The position numbers and the translations under genes are program-made. From Acidimicrobiales bacterium (GTDB lineage Bacteria > Actinomycetota > Acidimicrobiia > Acidimicrobiales > UBA8190): 64,000 nt of DNA. Shown piece after piece: positions 16,077 to 26,659 of this stretch (its first letter is position 1; every line of letters starts with the position of its first letter). Location: contig JBEKIJ010000012.1 of NCBI GenBank assembly GCA_050011815.1, positions 18,974-82,973 of the forward strand, written 5' to 3'. Below the pieces are notes generated by a model that was given only the letters and a program-made list of their open reading frames with translations, was not told where the DNA came from and made no database searches.

Positions 16077-16622
16077 CTACCAGCCGACGGTGCCGTCGAC
16101 GAGCTCGCGGATGAGATCGGCGTGGCCGTTGTGGCGGGCGTACTCCTCGATCATGTGGACGTAGATCCACCGCAAGGAGCAGGGCTCGCCGTCTCGCAGC
16201 CCGGTGTCGTCGAGGGAGTGGGCGGCGGCCGCCGCTCTGCTGCGCTCACACTCCTCGCGCCATGTGGCGAGGTCGGTCTCCCAGTCCGCCTCGTCGAGGG
16301 GCACGAGCTCGCTGTCCTCGACTTCGGGGTCGTACCAGATCGGTGGTGCCTCGGAATCACCGAGCAGGGTCCTCCGGAACCAGCCCCGCTCCACTTCCCC
16401 CATGTGGCGAACCAGGCCGTGCAGCGACAGGTTCGAGGTGGGGACGGGCCGTGCCTTTCGACCGGCATCGGTCATCCCCTCGCACTTGAGCAGCAACGTG
16501 GTCCGGTGGAACTCGAGCCACCGTTCGAGCATGGCCCGTTCCGGGGCCACGTAGGGCGGCTCGCTCCGTCGGGGGTCCACCAGATCTTCCACCATGGGAC
16601 ACCCCCTCGCCGGGTCGAGCAC
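16077..16622 (-). CDS. DinB_2/DUF664 family protein
   Basis: The C-terminal IYVHMIEEYARHNGHADLIRE motif is characteristic of actinobacterial DUF664 (DinB-like four-helix bundle). The start may instead be the internal ATG at 16595. Confidence 0.6.
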   Translation of the reverse strand: MLDPARGCPMVEDLVDPRRSEPPYVAPERAMLERWLEFHRTTLLLKCEGMTDAGRKARPVPTSNLSLHGLVRHMGEVERGWFRRTLLGDSEAPPIWYDPEVEDSELVPLDEADWETDLATWREECERSRAAAAAHSLDDTGLRDGEPCSLRWIYVHMIEEYARHNGHADLIRELVDGTVGW

Positions 16623-16658
16623 CTACCCGCCAAGCTAGACGGCGACACGCCGCCCCGG

Positions 16659-18509
16659 TCAGCCGAAGGTGAAGTCGTAGGCGTCCACTCCGGGTGAGAC
16701 GTCGAGCACGATGGTGTCCGACTCGTATTCCGACGACGACACCAGCGTGTAGAGCCGGGGGATGCCCGACACGTCGAAGGTCTGGGTGTGCGATCCGACC
16801 GTGGCCTTGACGGTGCCCGTCCCCCCGAGGACCAGGTACACGTCGTTGGCCTGGAAGGCGAGCTCGATGCGGGCGTCGGCGCCGGCGGTGATCTTCTCCG
16901 GTCCCACCGTCCACGTGCCGGAGAAGGCCAGGTAGTCGGAGGGGAGCGAGCCGGGGAACTTGTAGACGGCGGGTTGGTTCTCGGAGATGGTGGTGCCGTC
17001 GTAGTTGGGCAGCCCGTACTTGTAGCCCAGGTAGGACTCCGGCGTCTGCTCACTCGTCGGCGTCTTGTCGGGGACGTCGGTGCGCCCCGGGAGCACCACC
17101 TTCGGGTTGGCATCGGTCAGGAGTGTGCGGATGAGCGACTCGGTGACGCCGTAGTCCCCCTCGCCGAACTCGGCGTGGCGGACCTGACCGGTGGCGTCGA
17201 TCAGGTACTCGGCCGGCCACGACTCGTTCTGGTAGGCATCCCAGGTCTTGTAGTTGTTGTCGATGGCGACGGGGTACACCACGCCGAGCTGTTTGGCAGC
17301 TTGGGAGACGTTCGACACGACGTGCTCGAAGGCGAACTCCGGGGTGTGGACACCCACGACCTCGAACCCGTCCTTGTGATACCTCGAGTACCAGGACTCG
17401 ACATGGGGCAGCGACCGTTGGCAGTTGATGCACGAGTACGTCCAGAAGTCGACCAGGAGCACCTTGCCCTTGAGCGACGCCAGCGACAGGGGCCGATCAC
17501 CGGGCGTGTTGAGCCAGGCCGCGATGCCCTGGAAGTTCGGGGCGGCGCCGCAGTCCTCGAGCGAGGACAGGCCCGGCGCGCAGCTGCCCAGCTTTCCCGT
17601 CTTCTTCTCTTGCTTGATCGACGCCAACTCTCTCTTGGCATAGGAACCACCTTCGACGTGGTTCTGGAGGATGGTCGTGTACCCGGGCACGACGCGTTGC
17701 AGGCCGTTGGTGACATTGAAGGCGATGAGCAACGTCATGGCCAGGAGCACCACGCCGCCGATCTGTCTGGCCCGCGCCGCATGGGCCCGGAAGCCCGAGA
17801 CCCGTTCGGCCACGCGCTGGCCCGCCAGCGCGAACACGAGCAAGGGCACCGAGGCCCCCAGGGCGAAGTCGATGGTGAGCACAACCGAGGCCAGGCCGAC
17901 GCGGTGGTTGGCGCTCACCACGGAGATGGCGGTCAGCACCGGGCCCGCGCACGGCACGAAGAGGGCGCCGAGTCCGAGCCCGAGGACGAACCCGCCGGCG
18001 TTCCCGTTGGGTTGGCGCTGGGCCGCCCGGGCGAAGGGCCGCTCGAGGAGGTGCCCGAGCGGGGGGACGATGAGCCCGGCCGCCACCACGCCGAGGATGA
18101 CGAGCCCGGCGTCGCGCAGGAAGTCCTGAGGCAGCCCGAGGGCGCTCAGCAGGGAGGACCCGACCAGGGTGACGATGCTGAAGCTGACGACGAGCCCGGC
18201 CACCACCGCGTAGGCGCGGTAACTGCGGGCCCGGCCCTCGAGCAGCGACCGGGTCCGGACGGTGGTCGACCGCGTGGGGCGCACCGCCACCCGGAGGGTG
18301 TCGCCCGAGCCTCTCGTCCCTGCCGGCACGCGCGTGCGGGTCGGTCGAGATTCGGCTCCGGGCTCTCCGCTTGCGGTGTCGGTCTCGGCGTCGTCTGTCG
18401 TCGGCACCGTCGCCCCGGCCACAAGGACCACGGGGAGGACCGGCAAGATGCACGGGGAGATGCCCGCGATCATCCCCGCGACGAATCCGATGCCATACAG
18501 CAGGAGCAC
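16659..18509 (-). CDS. dipZ: Cytochrome c-type biogenesis protein DipZ (CcdA membrane domain, thioredoxin-like domain and C-terminal domain)
   Basis: The N-terminal CcdA motif (AGISPCILPV) and 6-8 TM segments are followed by a TlpA/ResA-like thioredoxin domain with a WTYSCINC motif and a ~200-aa C-terminal domain. This matches the mycobacterial DipZ architecture. Confidence 0.8.
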   Translation of the reverse strand: MLLLYGIGFVAGMIAGISPCILPVLPVVLVAGATVPTTDDAETDTASGEPGAESRPTRTRVPAGTRGSGDTLRVAVRPTRSTTVRTRSLLEGRARSYRAYAVVAGLVVSFSIVTLVGSSLLSALGLPQDFLRDAGLVILGVVAAGLIVPPLGHLLERPFARAAQRQPNGNAGGFVLGLGLGALFVPCAGPVLTAISVVSANHRVGLASVVLTIDFALGASVPLLVFALAGQRVAERVSGFRAHAARARQIGGVVLLAMTLLIAFNVTNGLQRVVPGYTTILQNHVEGGSYAKRELASIKQEKKTGKLGSCAPGLSSLEDCGAAPNFQGIAAWLNTPGDRPLSLASLKGKVLLVDFWTYSCINCQRSLPHVESWYSRYHKDGFEVVGVHTPEFAFEHVVSNVSQAAKQLGVVYPVAIDNNYKTWDAYQNESWPAEYLIDATGQVRHAEFGEGDYGVTESLIRTLLTDANPKVVLPGRTDVPDKTPTSEQTPESYLGYKYGLPNYDGTTISENQPAVYKFPGSLPSDYLAFSGTWTVGPEKITAGADARIELAFQANDVYLVLGGTGTVKATVGSHTQTFDVSGIPRLYTLVSSSEYESDTIVLDVSPGVDAYDFTFG

Positions 18510-18629
18510 GGTCGGGCGGCCCTCTCTCCGACGCCTCGGTGGCGTCCGGTACCGCCATCGTACGAAGGGGGCGGTCGGAAACGACGTCGCCTCGCGCCGG
18601 CCATGACGCCTCCTTCGGAGGCGGCGCCT

Positions 18630-20150
18630 TCAGCTCCCGGGGACCGCCCACCGCAGTGACCGCTCGACGGCGTGGCGCCAGCCCTCATAGGCGCGATCGG
18701 CCGCCACCTCCGTGACCTGAGCCTCGAACCGGGCGTCGAGGGACCAGATCGACTCGAGGTCGCCCACCGTCTCCCACACGCCTTCGGCCACTCCCGCCAG
18801 CGTGGCGGCACCCAGGGCGGTGGTCTCGGTGGTGGTGGGACGGGCGACGGGCACGCGCAACTGGTCGGCTTGGTTCTGCAACAGGAGGTCGAGGACGGCC
18901 GCACCGCCGTCGACGCGCAAGGCGGCGAGCTCCGCCCCGGCCTTCTTCATGGCGTCGACCACGTCGCGCACCTGGTACGCCATGGCCTCGATCACGGCCC
19001 GGGCGATGTGGGCGGCTCCCACACCCCGGGTGAGACCGGTGATCGTCCCGCGCGCGTAGGGGTCCCACCACGGGCTGCCGAGCCCGGTGAAGGCGGGCAC
19101 CACGAAGACCCCCTCGCTGTCGTCGACCTGCTCGGCCAGCGGTCCGATGCCGGCCGCCTCCTCGATGAGGCCGAGCCCGTCGCGGAGCCACTGGATCGCC
19201 GCGCCCGTGACGAACACCGCGCCCTCGAGCGCGTAGGCCACCGGCGACGAGCCGCCGTGCTCGCCGAGGTCCCACGCCACCGTGGTGAGGAGGCCCTCGG
19301 AAGGCGGCGGGCACTCCTCACCGACGTTCAGCAGCACGAAGCTCCCCGTCCCATAGGTCACCTTGGCCATACCCGGTGACACACAGGCCTGGCCGAAGAG
19401 GGCGGCCTGCTGATCCCCGGCCACCCCGCTCACGGGCACACCGGCGATGGCGGGCGCCTGGTCGCCGAGCACTCCCCGCACCACACCGAACCGCCCGCAC
19501 GAGGGCCGCACCTCGGGGAGCGCGGCCCGGGGCACGCCCAAGATGTGACACAGCTCGTCGGACCAGCACCGCTCCCGGATGTCATAGAGCAAGGTGCGCG
19601 AGGCGTTGGTGGCATCGGTGACGACCGCCCCGCCGTCGGTGGCACCGGTGAGGTTCCAGATCAACCAGGCGTCGACGGTCCCGAGCACCAGGTCGTCGGT
19701 GACCTTCACCCCCCCGGGGCCGAGCAGCCACTCCATCTTGGTGCCCGAGAAGTACGGGTCGAGGACCAGGCCGGTGCGGGCGCGCACCACGGGAAGATGG
19801 CCCTCGGCGCGCAGCTGGTCGCATCGCTCGGCGGTGCGCCGGTCCTGCCACACGATGGCCCGGTGCAGCGGCTTCCCCGTGGCCCGGTCCCAGGCGACCA
19901 CGGTCTCTCGCTGGTTGGTGATGCCGATGGCCGCCACCGCGTGGCCCGCGGCGTGGCGGCGCCCGGCCACCTCGGCCACCGTGGTCACCACCGAGTCCCA
20001 GATCTCGGCCGGATCGTGCTCGACCCATCCTGGGCGGGGGTAGTACTGGGCGAGCTCGCGGTATGAGACGTCGATGACGGCCCCGGTCTCGTCGACGGCG
20101 AGGGCCCGGACGCCGGTCGTCCCCGCATCGATGGCGATCACGCAGGCCAC
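18630..20150 (-). CDS. glpK: Glycerol kinase
   Basis: A 506-aa version starting at the GTG of VACVIAIDAGTTG. FGGY-family signatures run throughout (WDRATGKP, GTSCF-like, VDGG). The 605-aa ORF includes an implausible N-terminal extension. Confidence 0.85.
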   Translation of the reverse strand: MACVIAIDAGTTGVRALAVDETGAVIDVSYRELAQYYPRPGWVEHDPAEIWDSVVTTVAEVAGRRHAAGHAVAAIGITNQRETVVAWDRATGKPLHRAIVWQDRRTAERCDQLRAEGHLPVVRARTGLVLDPYFSGTKMEWLLGPGGVKVTDDLVLGTVDAWLIWNLTGATDGGAVVTDATNASRTLLYDIRERCWSDELCHILGVPRAALPEVRPSCGRFGVVRGVLGDQAPAIAGVPVSGVAGDQQAALFGQACVSPGMAKVTYGTGSFVLLNVGEECPPPSEGLLTTVAWDLGEHGGSSPVAYALEGAVFVTGAAIQWLRDGLGLIEEAAGIGPLAEQVDDSEGVFVVPAFTGLGSPWWDPYARGTITGLTRGVGAAHIARAVIEAMAYQVRDVVDAMKKAGAELAALRVDGGAAVLDLLLQNQADQLRVPVARPTTTETTALGAATLAGVAEGVWETVGDLESIWSLDARFEAQVTEVAADRAYEGWRHAVERSLRWAVPGS

Positions 20151-20288
20151 GGTCGGGGACCCTATCCGGACCCCCAGGCACGACCCGGTGGGGCTCGACC
20201 CGCCCTCGCCGCGGGCCCCGGGTGCAAACCTTCGCGAACGGGTCGCGACCAGGGCCGACGCCGGACCGATCCCGTTGACACCTTCGTA

Positions 20289-20355
20289 ACTACAGTGCTG
20301 TAATGGCCCCTGCATCTGGTAGGCCCCACAGGGGAGACCACAACATCTTGTGGTC
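20289..20355. promoter_or_regulatory. Two palindromes resembling NrdR boxes upstream of nrdJ, in the glpK-nrdJ divergent region
   Basis: The two sites are TACAG-tg-CTGTA (20291-20302) and ACCACAAcatcTTGTGGT (20338-20355). The second has perfect 8-bp arms and resembles the NrdR consensus acaCwAtATaTwGtgt. They lie 85-150 bp upstream of the nrdJ ATG. Confidence 0.35.
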
Positions 20356-20440: not shown

Positions 20441-23400
20441 ATGGCAATCGCTCCGCAGCGGACCGCTATCGGCATTCGGCGGTACTTCACCACCGAAGGG
20501 GTCCACCCCTACGACGAGCTCGCATGGGACCGGCGCGATTCGCGCATCACCGACTACCGCGACGGCAGCATCGCCTTCGAGCAGCTCGAGGTCGAGGTGC
20601 CTGTCACCTGGAGCCTCAACGCCACCAACATCCTGGCCCAGAAGTACTTCCGGGGGACCCCCGGCACCGCCGAGCGCGAGACCTCGTTGAAGCAGGTGGC
20701 CGACCGGGTGGTGGACACCATCACCGCCTGGGGCATCAAGGACGGCTACTTCGAGGACGACGCCGAGGCGCAGACCTTCAGCGACGAGCTCAAGCACATC
20801 ATCGTGAACCAGCGGGCCGCATTCAACTCCCCGGTGTGGTTCAACATCGGTGTGAAAGGTGTCCCGCAGCAGGCCAGCGCGTGTTTCATCCTTGCCGTCG
20901 ACGACTCGATGGACTCGATCCTCAACTGGTACCGGGAAGAAGGCATCATCTTCAAGGGTGGTTCGGGCGCCGGCGTGAACCTGTCGAGCATCCGCGCCTC
21001 GGTCGAACGGCTCCAAGGCGGCGGTACCGCTTCGGGCCCGGTGTCGTTCATGCGCGGAGCCGACGCCTCGGCGGGGACGATCAAGTCCGGTGGCAAGACC
21101 CGCCGGGCCGCCAAGATGGTCATCCTCAACGACGACCACCCCGACATCGAGGACTTCATCTGGTGCAAGGCCCTCGAGGAGCGCAAGGCGCGGGTCCTTC
21201 GCGACAGCGGGTTCGACATGGACCTCGACGGATCCGACTCGTTCTCCATCCAGTACCAGAACGCCAACAACTCGGTGCGCGTGACCGACGAGTTCATGCA
21301 GGCCGTCCTCGACGACGCCGACTGGGCCCTCACGGCCCGCACCGACGGCTCGGCGGTCCGTATCGTCAAGGCTCGAGACCTGTTCCGCCAGATCGCCCAC
21401 GCCGCCTGGGAATGCGCCGACCCCGGCATGCAGTTCGACACGACCATCAATCGCTGGCACACGGCCCCCAACGCCGGCCGGATCAACGGCAGTAACCCTT
21501 GCTGCTTCGTGGGTGAGACAGAGGTCGTAACAGCCGATGGTCGGCTTTCTATCGCCGAACTGGCCCTCCGTTGTGAGCTGGGTGAGGACGCGCCGAACGT
21601 CGTCGCCTTCGATCTCACCAAGAGTGAGCTGGTCATGCCCGAGATGGTCAAGGCTTGGGTTGCGGGATACACGTCAGACCTCGTAGAGGTCACCACTGAC
21701 CGGGGTCGCTTGCGCTGTACGCCTGAGCATCCTTTCCTGACCATGACAGGCGAGTTTGTGCACGCACAGTCACTCGTTCCTGGAACGAGGCTTCACGGCC
21801 TTGAGGGTACTGAGCGGATCGTGTCCGTAGGCAGGCTCCGTTTGGAACAAGAAGTCCCCGTATACGACCTGGAGGTGGCGGGGGTTCACAACTTCGCCGT
21901 TGCGACCAGTGACTCCACCGGAGTCATCGTCCACAACAGCGAGTACATGCACATCGACAACAGCGCCTGCAACCTGGCCTCGATCAACCTGCTCAAGTAC
22001 CTCCGCGAGGACGACAGCTTCGACGCCGAGAGCTTCAACGCCACGGTGGACGTCGTGTTCACGGCGCAGGAGATCCTGGTCGGCAACGCCGACTACCCGA
22101 CCGAGAAGATCGCCGAGAACTCGCGCCGGTACCGTGAGCTCGGCCTCGGATACGCGAACCTGGGTGCCCTCCTCATGGCCCAGGGCCTGCCCTATGACTC
22201 CGACGAGGGTCGGGCCTGGGCCGCGTCGATCACGGCCCTCATGACGGGCCACGCCTACGCCGTGTCCGCTCGGACGGCGTCGCGCATGGGCCCCTTCGCC
22301 GGCTTCCACGCCGATCGCGAGGCGATGCTCAACGTGCTGCAGATGCACCGCGCCGAGGTCGCCAAGATCGACGAGGAGCTCGTTCCCATGGATCTGCTCT
22401 CCGCCGCTCAGGAAGCGTGGGACGATGCCGTCGAGCTCGGAGAGCAGTTCGGCGTGCGCAACTCCCAGGCCAGCGTCCTCGCCCCGACAGGAACCATCGC
22501 CCTGATGCTCGACTGTGACACCACCGGTGTCGAGCCCGACCTCGGCCTCGTGAAGACGAAGAAGCTCGTCGGTGGTGGGACCATGTCCATCGTCAACCAG
22601 ACGGTGCCCCGTGCCCTGGCGAGGCTCGGCTACATGCCCGAGCAGGTCGACGACATCATCTCCTACATCGACGAGCACAAGTCGATCGTGGGTGCCCCGC
22701 ACCTGGCGAGCGAGCACATGGCCGTGTTCGCCTGCTCGATGGGCGACAACACGATCCATTACACGGGGCACGTCCGCATGATGGGTGCCGTCCAACCGTT
22801 CATCAGCGGCGCCATCAGCAAGTGCGTCGTGGGTGACACCCTGCTTGCCACTACCGACGGGCTCATCCGTATCGGTGGCCTGCACCAGGGCGAGAGTCCC
22901 GACAGCTTCCGCGACGAGATCCTCGCCGTGGCGTCGATCGGTGGCATCCACAAGACCGACGCCTTCTACTACGGCGGTGTCCGCCCGGTGCGTCGGGTGG
23001 TGCTCCGTTCCGGCCACGCCGTCACCGGAACCCCGAACCACCGGGTGCTGACCGCGGGGGCGACGGGCCTCGACTGGAAGCGTCTCGACCAGGTCGAGCC
23101 GGGCGATTACGTGGCCTCGAAGTACGGGGACGAGTTGTGGTCGGAACTTCCCGCCCGTTTCGACGACTTCACGCCGACTCGCTCCTACGGCTCCCAGAAG
23201 ACGGTCCGGATCCCCGACGAGATGACGGACCCGCTGGCGTTCCTGCTCGGCGCCTACGCATCCGAGGGCCATACCTCGCGTTCGACGTGGACGATAGTCA
23301 TCACGAACTCCGAGGACGCCGTCCTGGAGGAGATCGCTGAGGCCGCTCGCGTGTGCTTCGACGTCGAAGCCAAGATCCGCCGTCCCGCGGACCGTTGCCC

Positions 23401-25081
23401 GAGCGTTGAGATCTCCTCGAAGACGATCGTCGAGTTCTTCGAGTACCTGGGATGCGGCGCACGGGCTTCGGCCAAGCGGATCCCCGATGCGGTGCTTCGT
23501 TCCCCCCGGGAGCTCGTGCTCTCGTTCCTCCAGGGTCTCGCCCTCGACGCCTACACCAGTGACGCCACGACGACGAAATGGGCGATCTGCCTCGACGCGC
23601 CCGCGCTCCTCGATGACCTGCAGGCGGTCCTGACCAACCTGGGCGTGGTGCACGGCCGGATCAGCAAGTCCAACAAGCTCAACGGCAAGACCTACGACGA
23701 GGTCTATGCCGCGGGTGTCCACGCCAAGAAGATGGTCGAGCTCGCCCCCTTCCTCGAGGCCCACAAGTCGGCAGCCGCCGCCCGCATGGTGGCCGGCATC
23801 ACGGAGACGCATCACAACACGGCTGACGTGGTGCCGGGGATCACGCCGGGCGAGCTCTATGCGCTCGTTCCCTACCGACGTCGCAACGAGCTCGGCGTCC
23901 TTCTCCGGACCGAGTTCAGCTTCCTGGCCGATCGTCGCACCAGGTTCGTGAGCCGGGAGACGGTCGCACGGGTGGCTCGCATCGAAGGCGTCACCCTCCC
24001 CGAATGGCTGGGCCAGGTCCTCGACGACAACCTTCACTTCAGCCCTGTGGCATCGGTGGACGATGCCGGTGCGCGCGAGGTATTCGACGTGTCGGTGCCA
24101 TACACGCATGCCTTCGTCGCCAACGGGATCGTCAACCACAACACGGTGAACCTGCCCGAGGACGTCACCGTCGAGGACATCGAGCAGCTGCACCTCGACG
24201 CCTGGCGCCTGGGGATCAAGGCCGTCGCCATCTATCGCGACAACTGCAAGGTGGGACAGCCCCTTTCCACCACCAAGAAGGCCGGCGTGGGTGAGGGTGG
24301 CGACTTCGCCCCGCCCGGATCTGATGCCGAAGCCCGTGACCGCGCCGCCGCGGCCCGGATCTCCGAGCTCGAGGCGGCCCTCGCCCACGAGCAGGGCCGG
24401 GCCCACGACACGGTGGTGGTGGGAGCGGTGCGCGAGCGCCTGCCCCGGCGTCGCAAGTCCAGCACCTTCGCTTTCCGAGTGGCCGACTGCGAGGGGTACG
24501 TGACCGTTGGGGAGTACGACGACGGTCGGCCCGGTGAGGTGTTCATGAAGGTCTCCAAGCAGGGCTCCACCCTGGCGGGGATCATGGACGCCTTCTCGAT
24601 CTCGGTCAGCCTGGGTCTGCAGCACGGGGTGCCGCTGGCCACTTATGTCCGCAAGTACTCGAACATGCGTTTCGAGCCCGCGGGGATCACCGATGACCCC
24701 GAACTCCGCATCGCCACCAGCCTGTTGGACTACATCTTCCGCCGGCTGGCGGTGGACTACCTGCCGCTCAGCGAGCGCGAGGAGCTCGGTGTGTTGTCGA
24801 CAGTGGAGCGGATGCAGCCGACCCTGCCCGGTGTGGAAGAAGCCGCCACGCCTGAACAGGACCTCGTCGAGGACTCGGGGATCAGCTCGGTGCCGCCGAC
24901 GGGACGCAGCGACCGGACCTCGGCGGTGTACCGCACGTCGTCACCGTCTACCTCCGGCTCGGCGACGGCACGGGCCGAGCAGAGCAACGCACCCCTGTGT
25001 TACCAGTGCGGGATGGTCATGCAGCGAGCAGGGTCCTGCTACCTGTGCACGAGCTGCGGGACGACGAGCGGCTGTTCGTAG
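20441..25081 (+). CDS. nrdJ: Vitamin B12-dependent (class II) ribonucleotide reductase interrupted by two in-frame inteins
   Basis: RBS AAGGAAAGG 8 bp upstream. Has the NrdJ N-terminal region, the active-site NPC motif, the AISK-TVNLPED region and a C-terminal CxxC...CxxC zinc ribbon. Two insertions are each bounded by an N-terminal Cys and a terminal HN followed by Ser or Thr. Confidence 0.9.
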   Translation: MAIAPQRTAIGIRRYFTTEGVHPYDELAWDRRDSRITDYRDGSIAFEQLEVEVPVTWSLNATNILAQKYFRGTPGTAERETSLKQVADRVVDTITAWGIKDGYFEDDAEAQTFSDELKHIIVNQRAAFNSPVWFNIGVKGVPQQASACFILAVDDSMDSILNWYREEGIIFKGGSGAGVNLSSIRASVERLQGGGTASGPVSFMRGADASAGTIKSGGKTRRAAKMVILNDDHPDIEDFIWCKALEERKARVLRDSGFDMDLDGSDSFSIQYQNANNSVRVTDEFMQAVLDDADWALTARTDGSAVRIVKARDLFRQIAHAAWECADPGMQFDTTINRWHTAPNAGRINGSNPCCFVGETEVVTADGRLSIAELALRCELGEDAPNVVAFDLTKSELVMPEMVKAWVAGYTSDLVEVTTDRGRLRCTPEHPFLTMTGEFVHAQSLVPGTRLHGLEGTERIVSVGRLRLEQEVPVYDLEVAGVHNFAVATSDSTGVIVHNSEYMHIDNSACNLASINLLKYLREDDSFDAESFNATVDVVFTAQEILVGNADYPTEKIAENSRRYRELGLGYANLGALLMAQGLPYDSDEGRAWAASITALMTGHAYAVSARTASRMGPFAGFHADREAMLNVLQMHRAEVAKIDEELVPMDLLSAAQEAWDDAVELGEQFGVRNSQASVLAPTGTIALMLDCDTTGVEPDLGLVKTKKLVGGGTMSIVNQTVPRALARLGYMPEQVDDIISYIDEHKSIVGAPHLASEHMAVFACSMGDNTIHYTGHVRMMGAVQPFISGAISKCVVGDTLLATTDGLIRIGGLHQGESPDSFRDEILAVASIGGIHKTDAFYYGGVRPVRRVVLRSGHAVTGTPNHRVLTAGATGLDWKRLDQVEPGDYVASKYGDELWSELPARFDDFTPTRSYGSQKTVRIPDEMTDPLAFLLGAYASEGHTSRSTWTIVITNSEDAVLEEIAEAARVCFDVEAKIRRPADRCPSVEISSKTIVEFFEYLGCGARASAKRIPDAVLRSPRELVLSFLQGLALDAYTSDATTTKWAICLDAPALLDDLQAVLTNLGVVHGRISKSNKLNGKTYDEVYAAGVHAKKMVELAPFLEAHKSAAAARMVAGITETHHNTADVVPGITPGELYALVPYRRRNELGVLLRTEFSFLADRRTRFVSRETVARVARIEGVTLPEWLGQVLDDNLHFSPVASVDDAGAREVFDVSVPYTHAFVANGIVNHNTVNLPEDVTVEDIEQLHLDAWRLGIKAVAIYRDNCKVGQPLSTTKKAGVGEGGDFAPPGSDAEARDRAAAARISELEAALAHEQGRAHDTVVVGAVRERLPRRRKSSTFAFRVADCEGYVTVGEYDDGRPGEVFMKVSKQGSTLAGIMDAFSISVSLGLQHGVPLATYVRKYSNMRFEPAGITDDPELRIATSLLDYIFRRLAVDYLPLSEREELGVLSTVERMQPTLPGVEEAATPEQDLVEDSGISSVPPTGRSDRTSAVYRTSSPSTSGSATARAEQSNAPLCYQCGMVMQRAGSCYLCTSCGTTSGCS
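21503..21937 (+). mobile_element. Mini-intein 1 (145 aa, no endonuclease domain) inserted after the catalytic NPC of NrdJ
   Basis: Starts CFVGETEVVTADG (block A) and ends GVIVHN, followed by the +1 Ser (SEYMHIDNSACNL). The extein NPC|SE junction corresponds to the conserved NPCGE active-site loop. GC content is visibly lower than in the flanking extein sequence. Confidence 0.8.
22823..24142 (+). mobile_element. Intein 2 (440 aa) with a LAGLIDADG homing endonuclease, inserted after AISK of NrdJ
   Basis: Starts CVVGDTLLATTDG and ends FVANGIVNHN, followed by the +1 Thr (TVNLPED). Two LAGLIDADG-type motifs are present (LAFLLGAYASEGH and LVLSFLQGLALDAY). Confidence 0.8.
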
Positions 25082-25179: not shown

Positions 25180-26343
25180 TTAGTGCGAACGGTGTCCCGA
25201 GCTGTGACCGAAGTATTCCGGCCCGTTCGTAGGTGCCCCCGACCCGAACCCGCCGTGGTTGCTCGTGGCATGACCTTTCGGCCCCGACACGTCTGGCGAC
25301 CCTCCGGCCACTGATCCTCTCGGGCTCCCGAATACGGCGTGGGGCTTGGGTGTCGTGGGTGGGGAGGGAACCACGAACACGCTGGTGGCGGTCACGGTGC
25401 CGCTCGAGATGGTGCCAAAGGCGCCCACCTGCTCACCCACGCACACGTTGACGAACGTCGGTGCGCTCACGCCGTGCTCGGAGAAGGTCGTGGTGGTGCT
25501 CACGTCGACGGTGAAGGTCGAACTGTGGAACCCGTTCAAGGTGAACGTCCCCGCCGTGGCCGCCACCCCACAGGTGCCGGTGGTGCTCGTCCCGTTGACC
25601 GAAGCCACCGTCCCGAAGGCGGCGTGGGGCTTGGGCGTCGGGGGCGGCGTCACGAACACGCTGGTGGCGCTCACGGTGCCGCTCGAGATCATGCCGAAGG
25701 CGCCCACCTTCTCACCCACGCACACGTTGACGAACGTCGGTGCGCTCACGCCCTTCTCGGAGAAGGTCGTCGTGGTGCTCACGTCGACGGTGAAGGTCGT
25801 GCTGGGGAACCCGTTCAAGGTGAACGTCCCCGCCGTGGCCGCCACCCCACAGGTGCCGGTGGTGCTCGTCCCGTTGACCGAGGCCACCGTTCCGAAGACG
25901 GCGTGGGGCTTGGGCGTCGGGGGCGTCGTCACGAATACGCTGGTGGCGCTCACCGTGCCGCTCGAGATCATGCCGACGGCACCCACCTTCTCACCCACGC
26001 AGACGTTGGCGAAGGTCGGTGTGCTCACGCCGTGCTCGGAGAAGGTCGTCGTGGTGCTCACGTCGACGGTGAAGGTCGTGCTGGGGAGCGCGTCCAAGAC
26101 GAAAGCTCCCGCGGTGGCGGCGACGCCACATGTGCCGGTGGTGCTCGTCCCGTTGACCGAGGCCACCGTTCCGAAGACGCCCGTTGGCGCGTCGCGATGA
26201 TGGTGACGGCCATGGTGGCCGCTGCCGGTCGAGAGCCCACCCGAAGCACGCAACGTCGTTGCCGACGCCGCTGCGCCGGAGAGCAGGACCACCGCCAGTG
26301 TCGCCAAAATGGCGATCTTTGCCATGCGCCATGTTCTGGACAT
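25180..26343 (-). CDS. Secreted repetitive protein: signal peptide, His-rich termini and three ~90-aa tandem repeats
   Basis: Has a signal peptide (MAKIAILATLAVVLLSGAAASA) and a His cluster (HHGRHHHRD). It contains three near-identical repeats (AVFGTVASVNGTSTTGTCGVAATAG...NVCVGEKVGA.GMISSGTVSATSVFVT.PPTPKPH), each with two Cys, and a His/Gly-rich C-terminal tail. Confidence 0.6.
   Translation of the reverse strand: MSRTWRMAKIAILATLAVVLLSGAAASATTLRASGGLSTGSGHHGRHHHRDAPTGVFGTVASVNGTSTTGTCGVAATAGAFVLDALPSTTFTVDVSTTTTFSEHGVSTPTFANVCVGEKVGAVGMISSGTVSATSVFVTTPPTPKPHAVFGTVASVNGTSTTGTCGVAATAGTFTLNGFPSTTFTVDVSTTTTFSEKGVSAPTFVNVCVGEKVGAFGMISSGTVSATSVFVTPPPTPKPHAAFGTVASVNGTSTTGTCGVAATAGTFTLNGFHSSTFTVDVSTTTTFSEHGVSAPTFVNVCVGEQVGAFGTISSGTVTATSVFVVPSPPTTPKPHAVFGSPRGSVAGGSPDVSGPKGHATSNHGGFGSGAPTNGPEYFGHSSGHRSH
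25330..26175. repeat. About 279-bp tandem DNA repeat, three copies, inside the repeat-protein gene
   Basis: Near-identical units begin at ~25327, ~25621 and ~25900 (ggcgtggggcttggg...ccgaagacg). Confidence 0.7.
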
Positions 26344-26659
26344 GAATCCCCCCTGTGTTGAGTGCAGATCGCTCGGTCCGTCGCTGGCAGGCCGAGTCGC
26401 CCGTCCCCCCGCCGATGTTCCGGTGGACGAGCCGAGCGTGTAATGGCTGTTGAGGCACCTTTGCCCGAATACGTGGTCTTGTAAACACCCTATGTGATAA
26501 TTGTGACACTCGCCGCTTAGCGTCACCGAGGCACCGACCGCGAAGAAGGGCCGTGACCAGGCAGTTCATCTGAGATGCGCGCAGCGGAGCGGGAATCCCA
26601 GGATTCAGACAACGACTCGGGGCGCGGTGGATCGCCCTACCGCAAGAGCTCCCGGAGGG

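Follow-up and report, generated by a model that had tools for sequence, protein, structure and literature searches.

How can a working ribonucleotide reductase (RNR), an essential enzyme in the making of DNA precursors, be produced from a gene whose reading frame runs well beyond the length of the enzyme and breaks its catalytic motif? The question is raised by nrdJ of an uncultured Acidimicrobiales bacterium, located on the + strand at 20441..25081 of a 64-kb stretch of one genome (assembly GCA_050011815.1, contig JBEKIJ010000012.1, positions 18,974 to 82,973). The whole stretch is called the window, and all window coordinates refer to it. The reading proposed here, to which a probability of about 0.9 is attached, is that nrdJ is interrupted in frame by two unrelated class-1 inteins (inteins 1 and 2) that are spliced out of the precursor protein.

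Anatomy of the interrupted nrdJ gene

The original prediction, made from the letters alone, counted 1547 codons in the open reading frame (ORF) against about 960 in an uninterrupted gene. The count holds: the ORF spans 4641 nt and encodes 1546 residues plus a stop (codon 25079-25081), the extein without both inserts comprises 961 aa, and an intein-free ortholog has 962 aa. Translation reveals no internal stop or frameshift across 20441-25081, so neither insert is separated from the extein. The + strand frame opens further upstream at an ATG at 20303. Orthologous proteins begin aligning at residue 1 of the 20441 start and conserved non-coding elements occupy 20220-20354, upstream of the ATG at 20441; therefore, 20441 and not 20303 is the true start of nrdJ. 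The protein matches the NCBIfam NrdJ equivalog NF005122 (profile of 960 positions) with 1373 bits against a cut-off of 859 and TIGR02504 with 524.7 bits against 399.95, and contains the Pfam domains Ribonuc_red_2_N, the RNR barrel domain, and a C-terminal TSCPD domain. These matches identify the host protein as the class II ribonucleotide reductase NrdJ, with a dependence on adenosylcobalamin that is predicted from family membership. An Rfam scan of the whole window found no cobalamin riboswitch nor any other RNA family. A second assembly (GCA_964493855.1, contig CAZBPX010000017.1) differs from the window ORF at 5 nt, of which four are synonymous and one changes Glu to Gly within intein 2.

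Intein 1 (21503..21937, + strand) is a 145-aa mini-intein without an endonuclease, recognized by curated models and by a fold model. Its junctions read ...INGSNPC/CFVGE...VIVHN/SEYMH (a slash marks an insertion point throughout), with the +1 Ser codon at 21938-21940, and its insertion point lies one residue past the thiyl-radical Cys. A mini-intein of this length had been placed at this position, in the NPC/xE loop, by the original prediction, and coordinates, length, junctions, and intein models all agree with that placement. Block B is TPEH (residues 73-76, 21719-21730), block F is represented by Asp122, and the insert ends in His-Asn. When scanned alone, intein 1 scores above the cut-offs of TIGR01445 (intein N-terminal) and TIGR01443 (intein C-terminal) and also passes Pfam Intein_splicing. 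Cys1, Thr73, His76, Asp122, and Asn145 are invariant in all 17 NPC/S mini-inteins aligned, and 15 of these have the penultimate His. An AlphaFold2 model built from the alignment of these 17 family members has a mean pLDDT (predicted local distance difference test score) of 96.3. Compared by Foldseek with the PDB, the model superposes on mini-inteins and intein-like domains with template-modeling (TM) scores of 0.78-0.85, including 0.84 for the NrdJ-1 intein (8ubs; root-mean-square deviation 2.1 Å) and 0.78 for Npu DnaB. Weak sequence matches among solved structures are to the intein-like domain 2lwy, a CDC21 intein, and NrdJ-1 (8ubs). By sequence and model, intein 1 is thus assigned to the class-1 inteins with a HINT fold and is predicted to splice.

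Intein 2 (22823..24142, + strand) is a 440-aa intein of the LAGLIDADG type at the AISK/T point, supported by curated models and structure-database matches. Its junctions are ...ISGAISK/CVVGD...IVNHN/TVNLP, with the +1 Thr codon at 24143-24145. Cys1, a TPNH block B at residues 70-73, and a C-terminal His-Asn are present, and the insert passes TIGR01445, TIGR01443, and Pfam Intein_splicing when scanned alone. An intein with two LAGLIDADG motifs had been expected after AISK. Its coordinates are upheld, Pfam LAGLIDADG_3 matches with 32.3 bits (cut-off 22.5), and both motifs, LAFLLGAYASEGH and VLSFLQGLALDAY, are found. The first (LAFLLGAYASEGH, residues 138-150, 23234..23272, + strand) keeps its catalytic Glu148 and the second (VLSFLQGLALDAYTS, residues 232-246, 23516..23560, + strand) keeps its catalytic Asp242. 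Across 95 aligned AISK/T inteins, Cys1, Thr70, His73, Asp422, His439, and Asn440 are invariant; Glu148 and Asp242, both present in the window, are each kept in 78 of the 95. The splicing parts match the Mxe GyrA intein (1am2; E = 1.9e-13) and DnaB inteins, and the central endonuclease part matches PI-PkoII (2cw7; E = 6e-6). Intein 2 is therefore classed as a class-1 intein, with its HINT assignment made by sequence and its splicing activity predicted. Like the RIR1-type RNR inteins and Mxe GyrA, it shows the standard layout, in which a LAGLIDADG endonuclease with two motifs interrupts the HINT domain. With AISK/T it occupies a point other than the most frequent one in RNRs, NP/C, which lies directly N-terminal to the thiyl Cys. 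The Cys1 and His-Asn-Ser/Thr junctions that the two inserts were expected to show are thus found in both (Cys1 and VHN/S in intein 1, Cys1 and NHN/T in intein 2), and neither insert lacks the blocks that define inteins, as Cys1, block B, and a terminal His-Asn occur in each.

The two inserts divide the enzyme into three exteins. The N-extein (residues 1-354, 20441..21502, + strand) ends with the Cys of NPC that forms the thiyl radical (codon 21500-21502), the middle extein (mature residues 355-649, 21938..22822, + strand) ends with AISK, and the C-extein (mature residues 650-961, 24143..25081, + strand) includes the stop. In the catalytic NPCxE loop, intein 1 stands between Cys354, the thiyl-radical residue, and Ser355-Glu356, and the Asn-Pro-Cys-x-Glu sequence (NPC/SEY) is re-formed only once intein 1 is removed. 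The conserved AISK/TVN barrel motif is likewise split by intein 2. In class-1 protein splicing, whose four-step chemistry is well established, an N-S acyl shift at Cys1 of the intein is followed by trans-esterification to the +1 residue, cyclization of the terminal Asn which frees the intein, and an O-N shift which ligates the exteins. Applied to the anatomy of nrdJ, the acyl shift would take place at Cys1 of each intein and the +1 acceptor would be Ser for intein 1 and Thr for intein 2. The precursor (predicted mass 168.1 kDa; about 168 kDa) would thereby excise both inteins and yield a mature enzyme with a predicted mass of 104.5 kDa. Since one intein lies in the NPCxE loop and the other in a barrel motif that is invariant, no activity is expected of a precursor that retains one or both inteins. 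NrdJ is expected to function only after double splicing, which follows soundly from the insertion points.

The two inteins also differ in composition. The prediction that intein 1 is lower in GC than the flanking extein is confirmed by windowed GC (0.598 against 0.657 and 0.659 in the flanks) and by GC at third codon positions (GC3), which is 0.90 in the extein, 0.861 in intein 2, and 0.683 in intein 1. The lowest 145-codon window of the extein has a GC3 of 0.855 (intein 1 versus extein, Fisher p = 7e-11), and intein 2 lies slightly below the extein (p = 0.036). The alleles of intein 1 in two orthologs (L082 and L085), which are 79-81% identical to it, have GC3 values of 0.69 and 0.75. The low GC3 therefore characterizes the intein lineage and is no proof of a very recent arrival; it fits an element that moves among hosts and does not date its arrival in this genome. 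Relative to orthologs, the ratio of nonsynonymous to synonymous substitution rates (dN/dS) is 0.045-0.07 for the extein, 0.12 for intein 1, 0.12-0.17 for the whole of intein 2, and 0.11-0.19 for its endonuclease part. Both inteins, endonuclease included, are thus under purifying selection, which argues for function and against decay. The dS of intein 1 is about double that of the extein (1.13 versus 0.54), and that of intein 2 tracks the extein in ortholog L084 (0.275 versus 0.267).

Intein occupancy in close relatives and across NrdJ

Are the inserts inteins that come and go, or parts of NrdJ itself? Five syntenic orthologs (L082-L086) were fetched; all have an FGGY-family kinase gene upstream of nrdJ, and their exteins are 93-97% identical to that of the window. 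Three sites are occupied in differing combinations among these close Acidimicrobiales relatives. In the window, the ASA/C site is empty, NPC/S holds 145 aa, and AISK/T holds 440 aa. L082 has inserts at all three sites (149 aa at ASA/C, 145 aa at NPC/S, and 440 aa at AISK/T), while L083 is empty at all three. L084 holds 149 aa at ASA/C and 440 aa at AISK/T and is empty at NPC/S; L085 holds 357 aa at ASA/C and 145 aa at NPC/S and is empty at AISK/T; and L086, empty at ASA/C and NPC/S, holds 442 aa at AISK/T. L083 encodes a 962-aa intein-free NrdJ with an extein 94.7% identical to that of the window, and its alignment to the window extein, an alignment that the original prediction had proposed, lacks the inserts to the residue. 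L083, L084, and L086 read NPC/SEYM without interruption, and L083 and L085 read SK/TVN (in L083, AVSK/TVN; surrounding sequence GCGGTTTCAAAA/ACGGTCAATGTT). The DNA of the empty alleles joins to the codon at the predicted intein boundaries. Such exact empty sites in orthologs rule out that the inserts are ordinary lineage-specific domains of NrdJ.

Gain and loss of inteins fall within an extein synonymous divergence of 0.27-0.64. Each intein occurs without the other among the close relatives, which supports independent gain and loss of the two in this lineage. The independent acquisition suggested earlier stands for this reason. The two inteins are of different types: the full-length members of the intein 1 family carry an HNH endonuclease (see below) and intein 2 a LAGLIDADG endonuclease, a difference that had likewise been predicted. 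A BLASTP comparison of intein 1 with intein 2 returned no significant similarity. The LAGLIDADG endonuclease of intein 2 looks intact, and intein 2 probably still homes into empty AISK/T alleles; the endonuclease dN/dS given above and the patchy distribution in close relatives lend indirect support to site-specific cleavage of such alleles. Intein 1, which lacks an endonuclease, is not capable of self-homing and would be passed on by vertical inheritance or by recombination through the flanking extein.

Co-conversion of the extein flanks by intein 2 is not claimed. Among the five close orthologs, occupied alleles read ISGAISK/TVNLPE[DE] and empty alleles LSGAVSK/TVNVPEE. When 106 occupied alleles are compared with 78 empty ones, most of this flank difference vanishes, and Val at -3 is found only in 5 empty alleles.

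The wider distribution was assessed among the best 120 full-length homologs, in which the count for AISK/T is biased because the query itself held that intein. AISK/T is occupied in 105 of the 120 and the NPC/S mini-intein (145-154 aa) is present in 17. At the neighboring NP/C point, about 30 of the 120 hold a different intein of 380-403 aa that usually ends in Arg-Asn; in P0127, P0129, P0134, and about 25 other homologs, the usual penultimate His of the NP/C intein is missing in this way. NP/C and NPC/S are never jointly occupied in one protein of this sample. More inteins lie near extein residues 148, 215, and 541, and the longest protein (P0209) reaches 2418 aa with four inteins. In a less biased set of 80 species-representative genomes, nrdJ is uninterrupted in 63. 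Inteins are common in this enzyme family: one survey (PMC4760082) counts 211 inteins in RNR, Actinobacteria included, and ranks it second among bacterial proteins in intein richness. RNRs with several inteins have already been described, as have HNH inteins and mini-inteins, and the double-intein nrdJ adds no new kind.

Several public gene calls of relatives begin at the AISK/T intein or within it. P0014, P0018, and P0026 (Micromonospora, Gaiella) are calls of 681-741 aa whose first residue lies either 7 residues ahead of this intein or about 19 residues into it; they bear the names 'TSCPD domain-containing protein' or 'LAGLIDADG family homing endonuclease'. In public annotation, nrdJ genes with inteins appear to be split or truncated. 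Frame changes occur within nrdJ in several long-read metagenome-assembled genomes of the MFD series (L004, L011, L021, L035, L036, L041). The 177-aa call P0001 begins at the end of an intein 1 allele with 80% identity and continues in a shifted frame. Such frame changes are probably sequencing errors rather than signs of pseudogenes.

Relatives of intein 1 and competing readings

The insertion point of intein 1 is shared with a known split intein. NrdJ-1 and NrdJ-2, both split and both from the Global Ocean Sampling metagenome, were described by Dassa et al. (2009, PMC2677866), who place NrdJ-1 at the same NPC/S point. NrdJ-1 requires Ser at +1 (PMC13123727), the residue found at +1 of intein 1. 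The two have the same fold (TM score 0.84, as above) and share the block B motif R-C-T-P-[ED]-H, non-catalytic Cys included. Sequence similarity is weak (about 24% identity; phmmer E = 5e-4). Unlike the split NrdJ-1, intein 1 is one continuous 145-codon segment with no free-standing endonuclease gene inside, and its host is a high-GC actinobacterium whereas the source of NrdJ-1 is marine and cyanophage-like.

Other relatives carry an endonuclease. In IMG/VR, inteins of 293-308 aa that contain Pfam HNH_3 were identified at NPC/S in NrdJ genes (L087, L089, L090, L091, and L093), on contigs that are viral by the IMG/VR classification. Residues 1-100 of intein 1 align to residues 1-101 of the 308-aa L087 intein (50% identity) and residues 101-145 to its residues 261-308 (44% identity). 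The gap between the aligned halves corresponds to a module of about 160 aa with a Pfam HNH_3 domain, and the mini-intein therefore corresponds to an HNH intein minus this endonuclease module. Among the HNH inteins at NPC/S from IMG/VR and the representative library, the splicing halves match intein 1 at 36-48% identity when all 145 positions are counted; intein 1 differs from them in lacking the HNH_3 module between these halves. As in intein 1, GC3 of the HNH intein lies below that of the host gene in 4 of the 5 IMG/VR contigs, most clearly in L091 (0.45 versus 0.72) and not appreciably in L093 (0.71 versus 0.72). An initial impression that intein 1 is rare (4 matches in a word-indexed search) was overturned by an exhaustive HMMER search of the representative library, which returned 1822 relatives. 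About 45 of the best 150 of these 1822 have an NPC/S intein, of which about half are mini-inteins and half HNH-sized, and the two size classes overlap in identity to intein 1 (36-52% over splicing-domain columns). Intein 1 thus looks like an endonuclease-less form of an HNH-bearing NPC/S intein lineage, with loss as the suggested direction.

Two other candidate sources of intein 1 were considered. The large inteins at the thiyl site were rejected: they sit one residue upstream (NP/C), end in Arg-Asn, are of the LAGLIDADG type, and resemble intein 1 at only 28-35% identity across some 95 N-terminal residues. GenBank phage records yielded no close phage donor, only distant matches of 30-36% identity from unrelated hosts. 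The public protein fragment P0004 holds a 63-aa insert at NPC/S that keeps blocks A and F/G and has no block B. By its sequence this may be either an internally deleted, probably splicing-dead mini-intein remnant or an assembly artefact.

Could intein 1 be a regulatory switch instead of a purely selfish element? Its splicing might be conditional and redox-gated, making it a post-translational switch on the supply of deoxynucleoside triphosphates (dNTPs). Three Cys residues lie at or near the N-terminal splice site, namely the thiyl Cys at -1, Cys1, and Cys72. Cys72 directly precedes block B, does not vary among the 17 family members, and is kept in the viral-classed HNH forms. Its counterpart in NrdJ-1 is Cys76, which according to PMC13123727 is dispensable for catalysis and was mutated to limit disulfide formation. 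One conserved Cys, however, is weak evidence, and close relatives thrive without intein 1, so any regulatory role is dispensable; this reading is considered unlikely. If it were true, disulfides would hold NrdJ inactive under oxidation and couple dNTP synthesis to the redox state, and the NrdJ-1 family, of which protein engineering makes wide use, would have the same property built in.

The possibility that one or both inteins are splicing-dead, with nrdJ a decaying pseudogene in a cell that relies on another RNR, is given a very low probability. Decay does occur in the NPC/S family, as the block-B-less P0004 remnant illustrates, a LAGLIDADG acidic residue is lost in 17 of the 95 AISK/T inteins, and the view of this genome is limited to 64 kb. 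Every splicing residue is nevertheless intact in both inteins of the window, the ORF is uninterrupted, the leader elements upstream are conserved, and the low dN/dS and strong codon bias of the extein (GC3 0.90) are accompanied by dN/dS values of 0.12-0.17 in the inteins. It is scarcely credible that the inserts are NrdJ domains specific to this lineage, or bacterial intein-like (BIL) domains, that are retained or only cleave. BIL domains (2lwy, 6y75) are the best PDB structure and sequence matches of intein 1 and Pfam PT-HINT matches it with 36.9 bits, but bona fide inteins match nearly as well (NrdJ-1 and Npu DnaB, above). Both inserts interrupt motifs, catalytic or in the core, that do not vary in this conserved enzyme, whereas BIL domains are expected in variable proteins and usually have no +1 nucleophile competent for ligation. 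The inserts are exactly absent from orthologs that are 93-97% identical, and each has what ligation requires, a terminal His-Asn and a Ser or Thr nucleophile at +1.

Several points weigh against the interpretation of nrdJ as a functional gene with two splicing inteins of separate history. A second RNR may be encoded beyond the 64 kb in view and would make splicing less necessary. The sequence comes from a metagenome-assembled genome, and splicing and DNA cleavage are deduced from it. The doubled dS of intein 1 was rejected as proof of horizontal transfer because weaker codon bias accounts for it equally well; it could reflect that bias and not a separate history. The direction of endonuclease loss is unrooted, and a mini-intein that gained an HNH module would give the same alignment. 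Finally, the viral status of the HNH-bearing contigs is taken from the IMG/VR classification.

Surroundings of nrdJ and significance

Further features of the gene lie in the C-extein and in the leader. The C-extein contains the TSCPD domain (24491-24754, + strand, Pfam) and a Cys-rich C-terminal tail, CYQCG...CYLCTSCG (24998-25078, + strand), with the stop directly after it. The 5' leader of nrdJ contains the element CCCCTGCATCTGGTAG (20307-20322, + strand) and the palindrome CCACAACATCTTGTGG (20338-20353, + strand), each almost invariant in six orthologous upstream regions. Their centers are 31 bp apart and the pair spans 20307..20354; both are presumably NrdR-box-like. A TTGACA hexamer in the leader (20275-20280) is invariant in six orthologous loci. 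Despite this hexamer, a scan for sigma-70 promoters and terminators upstream of nrdJ found nothing. Between the glpK-like gene and nrdJ, at 20220-20253, the sequence GGGTGCAAACCTTCGCGAACGG...CGCGACCAGG is nearly invariant in six orthologous loci and its surroundings vary.

Upstream of nrdJ on the - strand (16077-20150) lie genes for an FGGY-family (glycerol-kinase-like) protein, a DsbD/thioredoxin-like fusion (656 aa), and a mycothiol S-transferase-like protein. This thiol-redox neighborhood is conserved in the orthologous loci. Downstream of nrdJ, a tandem repeat at 25372-26179 (period 279 bp, 2.9 copies, 92% matches) lies within two overlapping ORFs, 25274-26200 (+ strand, GC3 0.90) and 25180-26526 (- strand). 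Neither ORF has a Pfam match, and the public assembly calls the + strand gene.

For annotation, the locus is one nrdJ gene with two inteins. The known picture, in which few proteins are as rich in inteins as RNRs and alleles with several inteins occur, is unchanged. NrdJ-1 is an ultra-fast split intein that is in use for protein engineering. Intein 1, contiguous and 145 aa long, is a relative at the NrdJ-1 point and a possible source of new splicing tools. The mini, HNH-bearing, and split forms together provide a natural series for studying the entry of endonucleases into inteins and their exit from them. The relatives with 93-97% identical exteins, which differ in their inteins at three sites, offer a setting in which intein gain and loss may be measured in an uncultured soil lineage.

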